Positions 1,144 through 40,200 of a stretch of DNA of 64,000 nucleotides are shown here, piece after piece (position 1 is the stretch's first letter; every line of letters begins with the position of its first letter). The translations under genes and the position numbers were made by a program. Below the pieces are notes generated by a model. That model had not been told where the DNA came from. It did not search any database and was given only the letters and a program-made list of their open reading frames with translations. The stretch comes from a virus, in the IMG/VR virus record IMGVR_UViG_3300012271_000010, positions 8,111-72,110 of that record; one strand, given 5' to 3'.

Positions 1144-1287
1144 ATGATTGATTTCATCTTGAGAAAGATTAGAAAGAGAATTGAGCCAAAAAATATGTGT
1201 GATTCTTGTACAAGGAAGTATACATGCCAGACCAAAAGTGGTAAGATGCTCTGTGAACGATGTTATAAAAGGGAATTAAATGTCTAA
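1144..1287 (+). CDS. small CxxC...CxxC zinc-finger protein (47 aa, below ORF-track cutoff)
   Basis: MIDFILRKIRKRIEPKNMCDSC...LCERCYKRELNV; stop overlaps the next gene. Confidence 0.55.
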   Translation: MIDFILRKIRKRIEPKNMCDSCTRKYTCQTKSGKMLCERCYKRELNV

Positions 1288-2473
1288 ATCGGAAACAAAG
1301 CGATGCGCTATATGTGGAAATACGAATTCTAGGAAAGGTAAGACGCAGTTTTGTTCAACCAAGTGTTATTTAGAGTCTAATAGAAGTGTAAAGAAATGTG
1401 AAGTTTGTAAAAAAGAATATTCTTATATATCTTTTTATGAAAAAAGGACGTGTTCTAGAAAATGCGGAGCTAAAATAAATGCTTCATGTTATCAAAAAGA
1501 CCCAAAAACATGGGTAACGACAAAATGCAATATTTGCAATAAAGATTTTGATGTACGAATCAAAAGGTTGAAGAGGACCAAGAACGTGTTATGCAGCACT
1601 AAATGTTCTGCGGAATTTAGATCTATTAACTTTAATCATGATCGGATATTGAATCACTATTCTGGATTCTTTTCATCTCTTAAATCAGGAGGTGAAAAGA
1701 AAATTAGATTTGATTCCTCTTGGGAATTGAGAAGGTTTAAAGAATTAGAATTTGATCCAAAAGTCATTCTATGGGATAGATGTCAAGATAAAATACTTTG
1801 GTATGATTCTGACAATAAAAAGCATCATTATAATCCAGATATTTATATTGAGTACGAAGACGGTAAAAGAGTAGTGGAAGAAATTAAAGGATTCATGAAT
1901 GAAGAATCTAAATTAAAAATTGAAGCTGGCGAAGAGTTTTACGACAGAACAGAAATATTATTTCGGGTAATAGATAATAAGAATATCTTATTTGATAAAA
2001 AACTTGAATATAAAACAGAAGAGTATGAAAATGATTATGGAATATTTAATCGACTTAAAATGGAATATATTTGGATGTCTCTAGCAATTATGTTAGCAAG
2101 CAAATCTACTTGTTCTCGATTAAAAGTAGGTTCAGTTATAACCGATTCTGGCATGAATAGAGCACTTTGTGTTGGATATAATGGAGATGAAAAAGGGGGC
2201 AAAAACCAGTGTGAAAGTTTAAAACCAGGAAAATGTGGTTGTTTGCATGCTGAAACTAACGCGATAGCGAAATCCCGCGAATCACTAGAAAATTGTATCT
2301 TATTCGTAACAACAGCACCTTGCAAATCTTGCGTTAAGTTGATTATTAACTCAGGTATAAGAGAAGTAATATATAATGAAGTTTATAGGGACACTAGTGG
2401 ACTCAAATTGATGAAACAGCGTGGTCTTAAAGTAACACGTTTTAGCAAAATTGAAGATGATACCCTTCTTTAG
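1280..2473 (+). CDS. fusion: Cys-rich zinc-binding repeats + TnsA-like PD-(D/E)xK endonuclease + dCMP deaminase
   Basis: three CxxC..CSxKC repeats; FDSSWE..YNPDIYIEY..EEIKG nuclease motifs; KSTCSRLKVG..GYNG..HAETNAI..PCKSC deaminase motifs. Confidence 0.8.
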   Translation: MSKSETKRCAICGNTNSRKGKTQFCSTKCYLESNRSVKKCEVCKKEYSYISFYEKRTCSRKCGAKINASCYQKDPKTWVTTKCNICNKDFDVRIKRLKRTKNVLCSTKCSAEFRSINFNHDRILNHYSGFFSSLKSGGEKKIRFDSSWELRRFKELEFDPKVILWDRCQDKILWYDSDNKKHHYNPDIYIEYEDGKRVVEEIKGFMNEESKLKIEAGEEFYDRTEILFRVIDNKNILFDKKLEYKTEEYENDYGIFNRLKMEYIWMSLAIMLASKSTCSRLKVGSVITDSGMNRALCVGYNGDEKGGKNQCESLKPGKCGCLHAETNAIAKSRESLENCILFVTTAPCKSCVKLIINSGIREVIYNEVYRDTSGLKLMKQRGLKVTRFSKIEDDTLL

Positions 2474-3182: not shown

Positions 3183-3218
3183 ATGAAAAACTACGCAAAA
3201 CGAAAACATAAACGATAG
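3183..3218 (+). CDS. putative Lys/Arg-rich leader peptide MKNYAKRKHKR
   Basis: AAGGA RBS, four AAA codons, ends CGA-TAG, followed by alternative hairpins overlapping the tRNA-Lys 5' end. Confidence 0.4.
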   Translation: MKNYAKRKHKR

Positions 3219-3255
3219 GGCTGGGATGTGCCCGTTGAAACATCCCACACCATGT

Positions 3256-3333
3256 GGGTTTGTAGTATAACGGATGTATTATACTCGGCTCTTAACCGAT
3301 GAGATTTGGGTTCGAATCCCAACAGACCCACCA
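3256..3333 (+). tRNA. trnK: tRNA-Lys(CTT)
   Basis: GGGTTTG/CAGACCC acceptor, CTCTTAA loop, TTGGG-TTCGAAT-CCCAA T arm, ACCA end. Confidence 0.9.
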
Positions 3334-3741: not shown

Positions 3742-4359
3742 ATGAGTGACAAATTACTTGGAAAAATGATCAAAGAGTTGACTGAAAACAATATCAGTAT
3801 AAAATTTGTAAACAAAAGTACTCTTGAAGATGATAGTCCAATGTTGGGGTTTTTCTGTGAATTGGATAAATTAATCGAAGTAGGAACTCTCGACGACGGC
3901 TGGTTTCAGACTTTCGCTCATGAATATTGTCACTTTAAACAGTGGAAAGATGGTCTCTTTGACGATATAACAACAATAGCTGCATATGCCACATTAGATA
4001 ATTGGGTGGACAGGAACAGAGAACTACCATCAGAAACAGTAAAGAAATTTATCCGTTGCATGCAGTTTATTGAATGGGACAATGAAAAACGTACAATTGA
4101 ATTTCTTGATAAAAACAAAATTGATTATGACAGAGAAGCTTATGTTAAGAAAGCTAACGTTTATGTTGCTTCTCATGAATTAACAAGACGTATTAGACGA
4201 TGGCAAAGTAAACCATTGAGTACTGTTCCCGGAGTAAGTGATTTATTTTCAGGGGAAGAAATGATGCTAGAAAGAGATTTTGGGAATCTCCCAGAAGGTT
4301 TTGAAGCATTAGCAATTTCATCTTTTGAAGAAGTTATCGTTGAGGAAGAAGAGGATTAA
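3742..4359 (+). CDS. HExxH zinc-metallopeptidase-like phage protein
   Basis: FAHEYCHFKQW and IEWDNEKR motifs; GGAG RBS. Confidence 0.6.
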   Translation: MSDKLLGKMIKELTENNISIKFVNKSTLEDDSPMLGFFCELDKLIEVGTLDDGWFQTFAHEYCHFKQWKDGLFDDITTIAAYATLDNWVDRNRELPSETVKKFIRCMQFIEWDNEKRTIEFLDKNKIDYDREAYVKKANVYVASHELTRRIRRWQSKPLSTVPGVSDLFSGEEMMLERDFGNLPEGFEALAISSFEEVIVEEEED

Positions 4360-4404
4360 AATGGACTATTATTATTATAAGATTAGACATACCCATATCA
4401 ACAT

Positions 4405-4493
4405 GGGAGACTTTCCTCGCGGTTGGCTGTAAACCAATTACCATAATAAGCGGGGTGGACGGTGAGAAGGTTCAATTCCTTAGTCTCCCACCA
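4405..4493 (+). tRNA. tRNA-Tyr(GTA)-like RNA with rearranged D domain
   Basis: GGGAGACT/AGTCTCCC + ACCA, GGTTGG-CTGTAAA-CCAATT anticodon arm, AAGG-TTCAATT-CCTT T arm; no D arm 5' of the anticodon arm. Confidence 0.75.
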
Positions 4494-4514
4494 AATTAAA
4501 CCGATTATGTGTAT

Positions 4515-4603
4515 GGTGGCTGTGCTGGAAATGGTAGACAGGCTGGGCTGTGAACCCGGTGTTTGATAAAGACGTGCGAGTTCGAAGCTCGTCAGTCACC
4601 CCA
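4515..4603 (+). tRNA. trnH: tRNA-His(GTG) with long variable arm
   Basis: G-1:C73, GTGGCTG/CAGTCAC acceptor, CTGGG-CTGTGAA-CCCGG anticodon arm, 16-nt variable region, CCA. Confidence 0.85.
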
Positions 4604-4628
4604 ATTCAAAAAACACACTTAGGAAGAA

Positions 4629-9488: not shown

Positions 9489-10862
9489 ATGGCTAAAAAA
9501 AATATATATGTGCTAGACACGAACGTGTACTTGACAAACGCTAAAGCAATTTATGATTATGGAATTCATGATATTGTAGTCCCTATGAAAGTTCTTGAAG
9601 AAATCGACAAACATAAAAATAGACAAGACTCGGTTGGCTCGCAAGCGAGAAGCACGATTAGAACTTTAGATTCTTTGAGAGAACGCGGAAATCTGAAAGC
9701 AGGTGTCCGAATTGCTAAAGGACGCGGTATTTGTCGTGTTGCAGAATCTGATACTTCACTTCTTCCTGTTGATTTGAGCCCTGACGTACCAGATAATATG
9801 ATTCTTTCAACCGCTCTGTCGGTACAGAAAGAAGAAGATGCAGTCTCATTGAGGCTGTCAGCCTCAAATTTTGAAGCAACCGGCGCGAAGAAAACAAAAA
9901 AGAAAGTAATTCTTGTCACTCGTGATATCAATATGAGAGTTATTTGTGATGCTATTGGATTTCCAGTAGAAACTTATGAGCCAGAAAGTGCTGTCGAAGA
10001 CAGTGATCTTCTATATTCAGGATATTCGGAAGTCCTAGTCGATGATGAATTTATTGATCGCTTTTATCAAGGCAGTGTCTCCGAATTACCAGAAGGTACT
10101 TTGAAACACGCTCCTCAACCAAATGAATTCTTGATGCTGGTCGCAAAAGGTAATGATAAAAAGACTGCTTTGGCTAGATACAAACACGGTGGTGATATTG
10201 TTCGGGTTGGCGATAGAAATGAACTGTTTGGTATTAGATCTCGTAACCGCGAACAATCTTTTGCTTTAGACCTTTTGGTTGATGATAATATTAAAATAAT
10301 TACTCTTGTTGGAAAAGCAGGATCTGGCAAGACACTTTGTGCGATTGCAGCTGGATTGAGTCAATCTCTTGAAAAAGATACTCCATATAAAAAACTTATT
10401 GTCTCTAGACCAATTCAGCCAATGGGAAAAGATATTGGATATTTGCCAGGTGATATCAACGAAAAGATGCTTCCTTGGTTAGCTCCAATCCAAGACAATT
10501 TACAATTTCTTCTCGGTGACGATAAAGAAATGTTAGCGGAGTACATTGAAAAAGGCAAAATTGAGCTTGAAGCTTTGACTTATATTCGTGGTCGCTCAAT
10601 TTCTAACGCTTTCATCATCATTGATGAAGCTCAAAATTTGACCATTCACGAACTGAAGACAATTATCACCCGTGTCGGTGAAAATACGAAAATCGTCCTC
10701 ACGGGTGATATCGAACAAATCGACAATGCGTTTGTCAACGATGTTACAAACGGACTTACGCATGCCGTCGAAAAATTCAAGTTTTCAGACCTAGCTGGTC
10801 ATGTAAGTTTGATCAAGGGCGAAAGGTCAAAAGTTGCCACACTTGCGGCTGCTTGCCTATAA
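9489..10862 (+). CDS. phoH: PIN-domain + PhoH ATPase (PhoH2/YlaK-like)
   Basis: VLDTNV PIN start, TRDINMR, GKAGSGKT Walker A, GYLPG, YIRGRS, IIDEAQN, GDIEQID. Confidence 0.95.
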   Translation: MAKKNIYVLDTNVYLTNAKAIYDYGIHDIVVPMKVLEEIDKHKNRQDSVGSQARSTIRTLDSLRERGNLKAGVRIAKGRGICRVAESDTSLLPVDLSPDVPDNMILSTALSVQKEEDAVSLRLSASNFEATGAKKTKKKVILVTRDINMRVICDAIGFPVETYEPESAVEDSDLLYSGYSEVLVDDEFIDRFYQGSVSELPEGTLKHAPQPNEFLMLVAKGNDKKTALARYKHGGDIVRVGDRNELFGIRSRNREQSFALDLLVDDNIKIITLVGKAGSGKTLCAIAAGLSQSLEKDTPYKKLIVSRPIQPMGKDIGYLPGDINEKMLPWLAPIQDNLQFLLGDDKEMLAEYIEKGKIELEALTYIRGRSISNAFIIIDEAQNLTIHELKTIITRVGENTKIVLTGDIEQIDNAFVNDVTNGLTHAVEKFKFSDLAGHVSLIKGERSKVATLAAACL

Positions 10863-37207: not shown

Positions 37208-40200
37208 ATGCTTAAAAATCTATTTGGCAAAAAGTCTCAAAAATTATTAGTTACCGCAACGACCAATAGGGACTTGAAAAACGAAACAGAATCAGAAGAT
37301 TTTGTTAAAGCGAATATCATTGATAAGGAACGCTTTGTTCCTACTGTTGATTTTTCAGATCCAAATAATTTTGCTAGATTTGCTTCCGCTTCTAAATATT
37401 ATGTCGATGCAATCAATATGATCCAACGGTCATATCCCTACGATGGTTCTTTAGCTGAAAAGTTGAACTTTCACAATGACTCAGTTGATTTTCATAACTA
37501 TCTTTTTGAAAATGAATATCCCCGTACTAATGGATACATTAAGATCGGCGAGAGTTACGGAAGTGTCACTACTGCTTCTCATGGTTACGATACTCCTTCT
37601 GCTTTAGAATACATTTCTTTTAAAGGTGGTCCAAACGCAGCGGTCAGTGCTTCGTCTAAAACTTTAAAAACTCTCTTCAAAGAAGCAAATATTTACGATG
37701 TTGAAGACGATAGAACCTCAAATCTAGAAATGAATGCTAGCGGTGGCACCTCAGTAGAGTTTTGGCTCAAAAAAACAAACTTCTCAGGTTCTCAGAAACA
37801 AGTTGTTTTTGATCTTTGGAATAGCAGTTCTTTTGGCACTGATGAATACGGTCGTTTTCGAATCGAGGTGTCAGGAAATCAATTTTTTGTAGAATATAGT
37901 TCTGGTTCGGCAGGAGTATTTAATACTCCTTTAGGACAAAATTTAAATATTACTGGATCAGATTGGAAACATTATGGCTTCTCTATTGAAAACACAGGAA
38001 GTTCTCTTTCTATGCGTTTTTATGTTACAGGAACTCTTAATGACTCTTCGATAACTGGTTCTTCAACAGGTTTAGTTGCTGGTCCGATGCTTGGGTTTAT
38101 AGGTGCGTTGCAAACGCCAGTCTCTGGTACTTCTGGTTCCCTAGGAGATGCTAAATTATCCGGTTCTCTTGATGAATTTAGATATTGGAGAACTAAAAGA
38201 ACAGACAAAAAGATAAAAAGATATTGGTTTCGACAAGTTGGTGGTGGAACAAACACCGATGAAGCAAATACCGATTTGGGAATTTATTACAAATTCAATG
38301 AAGGAATCGTTGTAACTGGAGCTATCTTTCAGGCAGATAAAACGGTGTTAGATTATAGTGGTCGTGTATCAAATGGTACGTGGGTTGGCTACACTGCAAC
38401 TTCAAGAGATACTGGTTCTGCTATGGTAGAGTCAGGCGCTTCCGCATTTGAATTTAAAGATCCAATTCTTAATTCAAGCCACCCAAGGCTTATTTCTTTA
38501 CGAAACGCTAAGATTCTAACTGGTAGTCTTCACGATCAGGAAAACAGTTCTTACGTCTTTAACTCATTTCCTTCATGGATAACCGAGGAAGACGAAGTCT
38601 CTGGTGAACCTCTTAAAGACCTGGTTCAAATCACTGGTGAATTTTTCGATGACATGTATTTGAAAATTGAAGCCTTGCCTTCAATTAAAGACGCGGTTTA
38701 TCGTTCTGGCAAACCACTTCCTTTTGCTTCTAGACTGTTAGAATCCTTTGGTTTTACAGCTCCAGAAATCTTTACAAAATCATCTATCTTTGAAGAAATT
38801 CTTTCAACTGATAACGAAAGAGAATTCGAAGAAAAACTTCATAATGTTAAAAACCAAATTTATCAAAATATTTATAACAATTTGATTTATATCTATCGTT
38901 CTAAGGGAACTGAAAAGTCAATTAGAAATTTAATTAGATGTTTTGGTGTCGACGATGAATTGATCAAAATTAACATGTATGCTGCTGACGGAGTAGACTA
39001 TAAACTGGAAGATAGCTACCGTTACACAAGCGTTAAGAAAAATTATGTGGACTTTAATGATACTGATAGATTCGATTCTAATGTGTATCAAATGACTGCC
39101 AGCGGCAATTCTAATAGTCTTTCATACATTTCAGGAAATGTTGCTTCTGGTCTTGTAGGAACTACATTTGAATGTGAAACTATATTCCCGAAGAAGTTCG
39201 AAAAATCTAGTGAATTATTCTTTAGAACAGATTTTGTTTCTTGCTCATTGTTTGGAATGCATGAAGCCGACACGTCTTCGGGCTCCAACACTACGTTCTT
39301 TGGTTCTGACAGAGCTGAATTGAGTGTCTTTGCGATTCGTCCTGAAGAAGAATCAAAAGATGCCTATTTTATGTTAACTTCTTCTTACCTCGGTTTAGAG
39401 TTGACTAGCAGTACTTACAGAGATGTGTACGATAATGAGAAATGGAATTTTGGTGTACGTTTCCACCACGAAAAATATCCTTTATCTGATGGAGTGACAG
39501 GAAGTTCTACCGGCAATTATAATATTGAATTTTTCGGTGTTAACGCAGTTTTAGATGTTTTGCAGAATGAGTTTCTCTTAACTTCTAGTGTGACTGCTTC
39601 TTTAGCCGAAGGACATTTTACAGCTGCAAAGAGAATTTACGTCGGCGCACACAGAAATAACATGACAGGTTCGGTCTTGACTGGATTAGGCACAAATAAC
39701 GAACATTTTTCAGATGCAAAGATTTCAGGTGTAAGATATTGGCTTACTAACGTTAGTGATGTTATTCTTCGCGAACACGCTAAAGATCCAACTAACTTTG
39801 GTCCTGAACACCCTTATAGAAATATTGATGCTTACTTAACTTCTGAGTTGAATGGAATATTGGTTCCTCAAATTGAGACACTTGCACTTCATTGGGACTT
39901 TGACACAGTAACAGGGTCGGACAATGGAAGTGGCATTGGTCCTTCAAACACTTCTGACGCCAAATTTTTGGTAGAAGACTCATCTTCTGGATCAGTAGAT
40001 TTACAAACACGATGGAGTTTTATTGGAAATATTTCCAAAGCTCAACACCCTGGTCGCGGAGACTTCTTTTTGAGAAATAACAATCAAGTCGTTCAGCGAG
40101 AATACGTTTTTGCTGCTAGAAAAAGATTGCCTGAAACTCTCAATAGCGATGATCTGATTGAAATTCGAAGTCAAGATGACGAAAATTTCACAAGAGATAA

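Follow-up and report, generated by a model that had tools for sequence, protein, structure and literature searches.

According to Edelmann et al. 2024 (PMC11551756), all known bacterial transfer RNAs (tRNAs) are cloverleaves, natural arm-less tRNAs occur only in mitochondria, and differences in arm size make up the whole extent of the structural diversity among cytosolic tRNAs. A review of non-canonical tRNAs (PMC7609411) has sections on tRNA-Sec, the selC* tRNA-Cys, allo-tRNA, tRNA-Pyl and the mitochondrial tRNAs. tRNAs of the 8/4 type, including tRNA-Ser and tRNA-His, have been described from phage tRNA clusters (PMC5389517), and long tRNA arrays have been reported in Planctomycetes and other phyla (PMC8421152, a text without any word starting with 'Tyr'). 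In this study, we report a tRNA gene at positions 4405-4493 (+) of a 64,000-nucleotide (nt) stretch of virus DNA, referred to as the window (bases 8111-72110 of the 72,110-base IMG/VR record IMGVR_UViG_3300012271_000010, completeness rating 40%). This gene has no D hairpin, and covariation instead supports a D-type helix between one strand 5' and one strand 3' of the anticodon arm. We consider it likely, as judged from comparison with its relatives, that 4405-4493 encodes a working tRNA-Tyr of a non-cloverleaf class with a strand-swapped, pseudoknotted core. The family collected comprises 140 distinct sequences, from phage tRNA clusters and from mobile tRNA arrays of Planctomycetota.

The RNAs described to date that come closest to the element each share some of its features. 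tRNA-Sec (Rfam RF01852) and the 8/4 and 9/3 allo-tRNAs (PMC5389517) have, like the element, a 12-bp branch (8/4 in the element), a 6-bp anticodon stem, a 6-bp D-type helix and much extra sequence 3' of the anticodon arm. However, they are cloverleaves with a closed D stem-loop ('long stem and tetraloop') and a closed variable (V) arm, whereas in the element the D-type strands flank the anticodon arm and a pseudoknot is present. Their identities are Ser (G73 or U73) for the allo-tRNAs and Sec (UCA anticodon) for tRNA-Sec, in contrast to Tyr (A73, GTA) for the element. The comparison with published 8/4 and allo-tRNAs had been suggested in a first-pass annotation of the locus, and it left the 8/4 split as a shared feature and the closed hairpins and Ser identity as differences. 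Some overlap of the element with the 'E-loop' tRNAs of PMC5389517 is possible. The canonical bacterial class II tRNA-Tyr resembles the element in its anticodon (GTA, within the loop CTGTAAA), in its discriminator (A73) and in having a short helix rich in G/C that adjoins the 3' side of the anticodon stem, at the site of the variable-arm stem. The element differs in that it is 8/4 instead of 7/5, it lacks the D hairpin, and in place of a closed variable arm it has an opened variable loop which supplies a D-type strand and GG.

The D-arm-less mitochondrial tRNAs, such as tRNA-Ser(AGY), and the synthetic mini HisT (PMC11551756) also have no D hairpin and a short connector between the acceptor and anticodon stems. 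In these RNAs the D domain is simply gone and a Y shape has been modelled, whereas the element rebuilds a D-type helix and GG from a distant strand, and its genes are neither organellar nor synthetic. The 3' tRNA-like structures (TLSs) of plant RNA viruses, including the Tyr-accepting TLS of brome mosaic virus (BMV), resemble the element in being viral and pseudoknotted, and some are tyrosylated, but they are described as 3'-terminal genome elements of RNA viruses without a decoding role. The pseudoknot of a plant-virus TLS builds the acceptor end and not the core. For phage tRNA-Tyr, cleavage of this tRNA in the variable loop or stem is the means by which the defence systems Septu (PtuAB) and retron-Eco7 stop phages; the tRNA-Tyr of T5 is reported to resist through its distinctive variable loop, and T6 escapes by amplification of its tRNA-Tyr gene (PMC13096335, PMC11555353). 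The importance of the variable arm for nuclease escape in T5 and T6 fits the predominance of Tyr in the family reported here and its occurrence in a Rhizobium phage with a single tRNA, although the T5 and T6 tRNAs are drawn as ordinary cloverleaves, unlike the element. Full-text literature searches, the coverage of which leaves out most subscription journals, gave no description of a tRNA with its D helix closed from the variable region, nor any account of an unusual tRNA-Tyr from the clusters of phages or the arrays of Planctomycetes.

The first-pass annotation had described 4405-4493 as a tRNA-Tyr with its D domain apparently relocated 3' of the anticodon arm, and its coordinates were all found correct on re-reading the sequence. 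The parts of the gene are as follows; H1 and H2 are the two long-range helices, and alignments A1 and A2 and covariance model R1 are described below.

4405-4493 (+): whole gene, predicted non-cloverleaf tRNA-Tyr(GTA), 89 nt including CCA; from the sequence and an R1 match of 85.7 bits at 4405-4490
4405-4412 (+): acceptor stem, 5' strand, 8 nt, GGGAGACT; pairs with 4482-4489 at 8/8 positions, and on A2 8/8 pairs covary with 99.9% of cells paired
4413-4414 (+): TT connector from the acceptor stem to H1; T in 92/102 and 94/102 sequences, partly imposed by the search patterns
4415-4420 (+): H1, 5' strand CCTCGC, of the D-stem-like long-range helix; pairs with 4450-4455 (covariation on A1 and A2)
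4421-4426 (+): anticodon stem, 5' strand GGTTGG, 6 nt, abutting H1 without a spacer (sequence, A1, A2)
4427-4433 (+): anticodon loop CTGTAAA with GTA at 4429-4431; loop T2 in 102/102 and A6 in 100/102, partly imposed by the patterns
4434-4439 (+): anticodon stem, 3' strand CCAATT; stem 98.5% paired and 6/6 pairs covarying on A2
4440-4442 (+): H2, 5' strand ACC, where the stem of a variable arm would be; pairs with 4461-4463
4443-4449 (+): joining loop J, rich in A/U and 7 nt long, against a family range of about 7-12 (sequence and family comparison)
4450-4455 (+): H1, 3' strand GCGGGG, within the variable region; 6 pairs with CCTCGC, one of them G-U
4456-4458 (+): TGG directly after H1, candidate counterpart of the D-loop GG, with docking predicted; in 102/102 sequences, as demanded by the search patterns
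4459-4460 (+): short linker AC (about 1-3 nt in most of the family; family comparison)
4461-4463 (+): H2, 3' strand GGT, closing the pseudoknot (A1, A2)
4464-4466 (+): linker GAG before the T stem (family length about 2-3 nt; sequence and family comparison)
4467-4481 (+): T arm AAGG / TTCAATT / CCTT, with a 4-bp stem and a 7-nt loop (sequence)
4482-4489 (+): acceptor stem, 3' strand, AGTCTCCC (sequence, A2)
4490-4493 (+): discriminator A73 (4490) and encoded CCA (4491-4493) (sequence)

The acceptor stem, the anticodon arm with its 7-nt loop, the T arm with a loop of the TTCRA type, the discriminator and CCA are all features of a canonical tRNA. The D hairpin is missing, since only 8 nt (TT and CCTCGC) separate the acceptor and anticodon stems and the partner strand of CCTCGC lies 3' of the anticodon arm. 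The connectivity therefore reads: acceptor 5' - UU - H1 5' - anticodon arm - H2 5' - J - H1 3' - (U)GG - 1-3 nt - H2 3' - 2-3 nt - T arm - acceptor 3'. For the acceptor stem, a reading of 8 bp with a 4-bp T stem had been offered beside one of 7/5 with a mismatch. The 8/4 reading is upheld by 8/8 acceptor pairs with a 4-bp T stem, and by an eighth pair that is paired in 102/102 sequences with 4 pair types; the acceptor/T branch of 8 + 4 = 12 bp is of ordinary length.

The fold signal of the single sequence was weak (z = -2.01, with 5/200 shuffles folding equally well), and therefore the question was taken to the relatives. A scan of IMG/VR with a DNA pattern of three suitably spaced motifs (anticodon loop, TGG, T loop) gave 65 loci and 49 distinct candidates; a second pattern scan left the anticodon free. 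Alignment A1 was made with MAFFT from the 43 of the 49 candidates that had at least 7 of the 8 acceptor pairs, chosen regardless of H1 and H2; L003, with 6/8 acceptor pairs, and L009, L013, L030, L047 and L059, with 2-4/8, were left out. Alignment A2 is model-based and holds 102 distinct sequences, the source loci of which had been preselected by a parser for at least 5 of the 6 H1 pairs. A1 is thus the fair test of the two helices.

On A1, 95.9% of the cells overall were paired, compared with 71.4% in shuffles (0/500 reached the observed value) and 42-58% when the partners were slid. H1, proposed in the first-pass annotation as the helix CCTCGC/GCGGGG, was 95.7% paired with two-sided changes in 5/6 pairs, and H2, proposed there as the pseudoknot ACC/GGT, was 92.2% paired with two-sided changes in 3/3 pairs. 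On A2, 98.9% of the H1 cells were paired and 6/6 pairs covaried, the percentage being inflated by the preselection. H2, which is absent from the model R1, was 91.8% paired on A2 with 3/3 pairs covarying. Covariation was seen in all five helices over the 102 distinct sequences, and 0/500 shuffles reached the observed value. Absence of compensatory changes in homologs had been named beforehand as the mark of a decayed pseudo-tRNA; such changes were found in both long-range helices, and the covariation indicates that both of these helices of 4405-4493 are real. As regards the relocated D domain, the long-range D-type helix stands, since it covaries; as to the relocation itself, the connectivity would agree better with a swap of strands than with the movement of a domain.

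The minimum free energy (MFE) fold given by RNAfold was considered as an alternative structure and rejected, because its own helices were only 42-65% paired across the 102 relatives, which is the level of chance.

The covariance model R1, built without H2, separated the family from ordinary tRNAs. Family members scored at least 57.9 bits and ordinary tRNAs of the same loci at most 34.7, with one variant element at 43.9, and the match at 4405-4490 was the only one in the window. The variant is a second member of the scaffold, at L026:727-826 (-), 10 nt downstream of a non-cloverleaf Tyr gene. It has H1 CCATGT/ACATGG, AGG for TGG, a T loop TTCGATT and an anticodon-stem loop of about 17 nt compared with 7; this loop may contain an intron-like insert or serve another function.

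The elements behave as tRNA genes in their loci. At least 3 other tRNAs were present in the locus for 117 of the 140 distinct elements, 2001 of the 2005 neighbouring tRNAs were on the strand of the element, and the nearest tRNA lay at a median distance of 10 nt. CCA was encoded by the element in 62 of the 63 loci where at least half of the neighbours encode it, and in 1 of the 49 where fewer than 20% do. Among loci with at least 15 ARAGORN tRNAs, counted without de-duplication, a canonical tRNA-Tyr was found in 7 of the 76 with the element and in 14 of the 24 without it (Fisher p = 2e-6). In the arrays L130 and L154, Cys and Tyr are represented by non-cloverleaf genes, and canonical genes for either are absent. 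The elements take the place of the canonical tRNA-Tyr in these clusters. L003 and L006, one and the same sequence with 6/8 acceptor pairs, share their locus with a canonical tRNA-Tyr and may be a decaying copy.

Tyr is the dominant isotype of the family (153/165 elements). Members with other anticodons are GCA with U73, for Cys, at four Planctomycete loci (L119, L130, L154 and L192); CCA with G73, for Trp (L074 and L460); TAT with A73, for Ile(UAU) (L095 and L099); and TCT with A73, for Arg(UCU) (L069 and L292). One scaffold thus carries five anticodon types, the non-Tyr types being rare, and it is a general tRNA chassis and not an oddity of Tyr. In bacteria, U73 for Cys and G73 for Trp are identity rules, as is the combination of GTA with A73 for Tyr. 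The discriminators in the family follow the anticodon: A73 accompanies GTA in 153/154 elements, in agreement with the earlier remark that A73-CCA fits Tyr; T73 accompanies GCA in 4/5, and G73 accompanies CCA in 1/1 plus one more. None of the stop-codon anticodons CTA, TTA and TCA was found among 99 loci scanned for YYA anticodons, where the three members of the scaffold were one Trp(CCA) and two Tyr. Some of the non-cloverleaf Tyr genes (L010, L015 and L031) start with C1-G72 instead of G1-C72. C1-G72 is the identity pair of archaeal and eukaryal tyrosyl-tRNA synthetase (TyrRS), which hints at hosts or synthetases of another type for these members.

The first-pass annotation had expected poor scores from tRNA finders, and this was the case. 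ARAGORN called 8 tRNAs in the window and none at 4405-4493, in the mitochondrial mode as well, and at a lowered threshold it forced a wrong Trp fold onto the element. At gathering scores no Rfam family matched the element, RF00005 (gathering 29 bits) included. The sole Rfam match listed at E <= 10, apart from one lower match of the same clan that was omitted, was tRNA-Sec RF01852, which scored 25.7 bits and so stayed below its gathering score of 47; three stems are aligned in it (the long acceptor, the 6-bp anticodon and the 4-bp T stem), with 6 nt against the 16-nt D arm of the model. Standard annotation is blind to the elements (ARAGORN recognises just 4 of 165), and therefore tRNA-Tyr, and sometimes tRNA-Cys, look missing from many clusters and arrays.

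Members of the family were also identified in chromosomes and in a cultured phage. A scan of prokaryote genomes gave at least 120 loci; among the 80 with record titles, 35 bear the element, 28 of these in Planctomycetota taxa, a count that includes several genera assigned to the phylum. In the complete Planctomycete chromosome G001, with 86 Rfam tRNA matches and 91 ARAGORN tRNAs in the stretches analysed, the sole canonical tRNA-Tyr called is at 3,136,621-3,136,702. The non-cloverleaf gene of this chromosome, at 828,567-828,653, lies between tRNA-Glu(ctc) and tRNA-Leu(caa) in a tRNA array of about 40 genes, and of the 39 tRNAs that ARAGORN found in the 8-kb array locus none is a canonical Tyr. 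The array itself (G001:C1:826000-832000, L145/L238) runs on one strand and covers most isotypes, with the non-cloverleaf gene at the Tyr position. Elsewhere in G001, a tRNA-Gly(acc) was called by ARAGORN. The possibility that the element is a core gene of Planctomycetota was considered and rejected, in view of a match in 7/151 sampled genomes and of the canonical tRNA-Tyr elsewhere in G001.

When three other family members were used as queries, two had no match and the third gave one blastn match, which led to Rhizobium phage RHph_N3_2 (MN988526.1), which has a complete genome of 43,061 bp and Rhizobium phaseoli as its host. This phage carries an unannotated non-cloverleaf tRNA-Tyr at 39882-39967 (+) (L490:1491-1576), just downstream of an HNH endonuclease gene, that scores 75.4 bits with R1. 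It has H1 CCCGCG/CGCGGG, H2 GCC/GGC, CGG in place of TGG and a T loop TTCGACT, and it was found outside the motif patterns; the GG is kept in it and the preceding T is not, which shows, at the level of sequence, that the T can vary. ARAGORN found no tRNA in the 3-kb locus and the Rfam tRNA model RF00005 gave no match at E <= 1 across the whole genome of this phage. A phage may thus carry a non-cloverleaf tRNA-Tyr as its only tRNA.

The fold that we propose could be read as a normal class II tRNA whose GG, together with the 5' D-stem strand, was transferred into the variable loop. The second branch of tRNA-Sec is 6+6 bp. In the element, H1 would stack on the anticodon stem and give a similar 6+6, 12-bp branch; this stacking is probable because there is no spacer between the 5' strand of H1 and the anticodon stem. 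Since CCTCGC runs directly into the anticodon stem, it would replace the normal 3' strand of the D stem, so that the strand following the acceptor stem would descend from the elbow to the anticodon stem as the 3' D-stem strand normally does. The strand from the variable region would rise to the elbow and present GG, like the normal 5' D strand and D loop, and this GG would dock on the T loop as G18 and G19 do, so that the L shape would be kept while the connectivity of the backbone is changed. H2, located where the stem of the variable arm begins, closes the pseudoknot, and a position of H2 along H1 seems to be allowed by the short links on its two sides (1-3 nt between GG and H2, 2-3 nt between H2 and the T stem).

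With regard to function, the gene would be transcribed and processed together with the neighbouring phage tRNAs, and its product would be charged by the host TyrRS, by virtue of A73 and GUA, and would read UAY codons. In E. coli, HisRS, elongation factor EF-Tu and the ribosome accept a D-arm-less tRNA, and polynucleotide phosphorylase (PNPase) is the barrier in vivo (PMC11551756); by analogy, a function of 4405-4493 in translation is plausible. The likeliest advantage of the fold would be protection from host nucleases for which the normal variable arm of tRNA-Tyr is the site of recognition or cleavage (Septu, PtuAB, retron-Eco7), so that translation of the phage would continue. We put forward the hypothesis that the pseudoknot-rebuilt variable arm makes the element a candidate for a cleavage-resistant replacement tRNA-Tyr, which would explain both the dominance of Tyr and the presence of a tRNA-Tyr alone in one phage. 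Two points count against such resistance: the existence of Cys, Trp, Ile and Arg members, and the finding of no defence or partner gene that recurs beside the element. The Cys, Trp, Ile and Arg isotypes have no long variable arm. The full proposal, that a natural and hitherto undescribed strand-swapped, pseudoknotted tRNA fold in phages and mobile arrays is a nuclease-proof replacement tRNA, chiefly for Tyr, with its variable arm rebuilt, is accordingly offered as a tentative one that may well be wrong.

Several observations weigh against the reading of 4405-4493 as a working tRNA of a real non-cloverleaf class. The MFE fold of RNAfold is more stable (-30.1 kcal/mol) than the proposed nested fold without H2 (-26.7). 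Within A2, the outermost pair of the T stem is open in 30/102 relatives and the H2 pairs are broken in 6-11 of the 102 sequences; besides the H1 percentage on that alignment, the invariance of the anticodon loop, TGG and the T loop is inflated, in this case by the patterns. A canonical tRNA-Tyr co-occurs with the element in 10/154 element loci, so replacement is not strict, and the low frequency in Planctomycetota (7/151) indicates that the gene is therefore accessory, moving with mobile tRNA arrays and phages. No recurring partner protein was found when 51 open reading frames (ORFs), taken from the initial 22 kb of the contig, were compared by tblastn with all loci collected; the widest recurrence was that of a dCMP deaminase, in at most 6 loci. 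Lastly, the 24 entries listed as containing the stretch are all DNA, in the form of contigs, with no RNA run among them.

Among the other explanations, a decayed pseudo-tRNA or a chance tRNA-like sequence would account for the silence of ARAGORN and of the Rfam tRNA model, and L003/L006, with 6/8 acceptor pairs beside a canonical Tyr gene, could be taken as an example of such decay. The five helices covarying over 102 distinct sequences, with 0/500 shuffles reaching the observed value, refute it as far as the comparative data reach, and its probability is negligible. Just as improbable is a role outside translation, for example that of a primer, of a copied integration site or of a regulatory RNA; no direct support for it was found; Mukai et al. 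2017 (PMC5389517) discuss irregular tRNAs that are maybe unused in translation. The element is complete in length and has an acceptor stem, a CCA and an anticodon loop of its own, and members of the family lie inside same-strand tRNA operons at a median of 10 nt from the next tRNA. A copy of an attachment site would be expected to match a host tRNA, whereas the host-type Tyr gene of G001 is canonical and different.

The first-pass annotation had placed a decoy for defences that target tRNA-Tyr beside decoding as the function of the element. According to this explanation the RNA would mimic tRNA-Tyr and occupy or mislead a host nuclease without being used in translation. It draws on the targeting of tRNA-Tyr by Septu and retron-Eco7, and the text of PMC13096335 raises 'decoy or supplement' for phage tRNA-Tyr; the share of Tyr in the family (153/165) and the cultured phage with the element as its only tRNA also speak for it. 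However, a decoy needs neither a discriminator that agrees with the anticodon in Tyr, Cys and Trp members alike, nor a 12-bp branch for EF-Tu, nor a CCA that tracks the neighbours (62/63 compared with 1/49), nor the exclusion of the canonical Tyr gene from clusters (7/76 compared with 14/24), and it would be odd for a bait to have its most altered part in the variable arm, the reported site of cleavage. Decoding is favoured by the filling of the Tyr slot and by adherence to the local CCA habit, and a pure decoy is unlikely. A similarly low probability is given to a functional tRNA whose core is a frozen accident, inherited in one lineage of mobile arrays and phage clusters and having no advantage over the cloverleaf. 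The accessory distribution (7/151 Planctomycetota genomes), the travelling of the element with tRNA arrays and the lack of a recurring partner gene agree with such a history. It is less readily reconciled with elements of 44% to 62% GC across phage contigs of very different composition, with a member in a 43-kb phage without any other tRNA, or with five anticodon types on one scaffold, and persistence against canonical copies suggests that the fold is at least not inferior. The reading as a working non-cloverleaf tRNA-Tyr is therefore preferred to these alternatives.

The surroundings of the element are those of a tailed phage, with genes for baseplate wedge and tape measure proteins in the window (Pfam and PHROGs scans), the GC content of which is 36.9%. 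A tRNA cluster occupies the first 8 kb of the window, the ARAGORN set being Asn, Lys, Lys, His, Leu, Leu, Pro and Leu, and the element lies (+) between an ORF ending at 4359 and a tRNA-His at 4516. CCA is encoded by 7 of the 8 other tRNAs of the window, as it is by the element. On the whole source contig, ARAGORN called 20 canonical tRNAs and a transfer-messenger RNA (tmRNA), without Tyr, Cys, Trp, Ala or Arg. The tmRNA, at G000:C1:1127-1424 (+), is upstream of the window, with 12 further tRNA genes around it, and the tag peptide predicted by ARAGORN is ANDNIEQFAPIALAA. The neighbouring tRNA-His(GTG), at 4516-4603 (+), is 88 nt long, and its Rfam alignment (40.9 bits) shows about 13 additional bases in the variable region, a long variable region being unusual for a tRNA-His; pairing is possible between its discriminator C and the base preceding the Rfam match.

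Pfam and PHROGs searches of the neighbouring and large ORFs gave a deaminase, a phosphoesterase, PhoH-PIN, glycosyltransferases and baseplate proteins, and no synthetase or tRNA enzyme. The dCMP deaminase ORF, at 1280-2473 (+), has in its N-terminal half a weak match to a TnsA-like endonuclease, below the Pfam cut-off, and an ORF for a PIN-PhoH fusion, at 9489-10862 (+), flanks the tRNA cluster. Close relatives of the window element among GenBank phages were sought without success: megablast of 5 kb of the window gave 3 records, each covering just the 78-nt query stretch 3205-3282, and in the 30 records obtained by blastn of 4380-4620 the matches were short and confined to the T arm. In population contigs from 4 runs, 0 variants were found within 4405-4493, coverage of the gene being partial in 2 runs and absent in 1 (X24). 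Contigs of 2 'salt lake metagenome' runs had a 6-nt insertion, CATACC, after position 4387, which copies an adjacent CATACC and lies 18 nt upstream of the tRNA; the tRNA was unchanged.

The family would be a natural counter-example to the stated cloverleaf rule, in which the helices of a tRNA are kept and wired differently. It would provide a new natural scaffold for orthogonal tRNAs and would allow the reading of tRNA shape by TyrRS, RNase P, EF-Tu and the ribosome to be tested directly, and it may be a structural answer to defence systems that cut tRNAs. The cultured pair of Rhizobium phaseoli and phage RHph_N3_2 makes these questions testable now. Should the proposal of a nuclease-proof fold be true, cytosolic translation in many bacteria would routinely use a non-cloverleaf tRNA, and an arms race centred on tRNA would have altered the architecture of tRNA and not its sequence alone.

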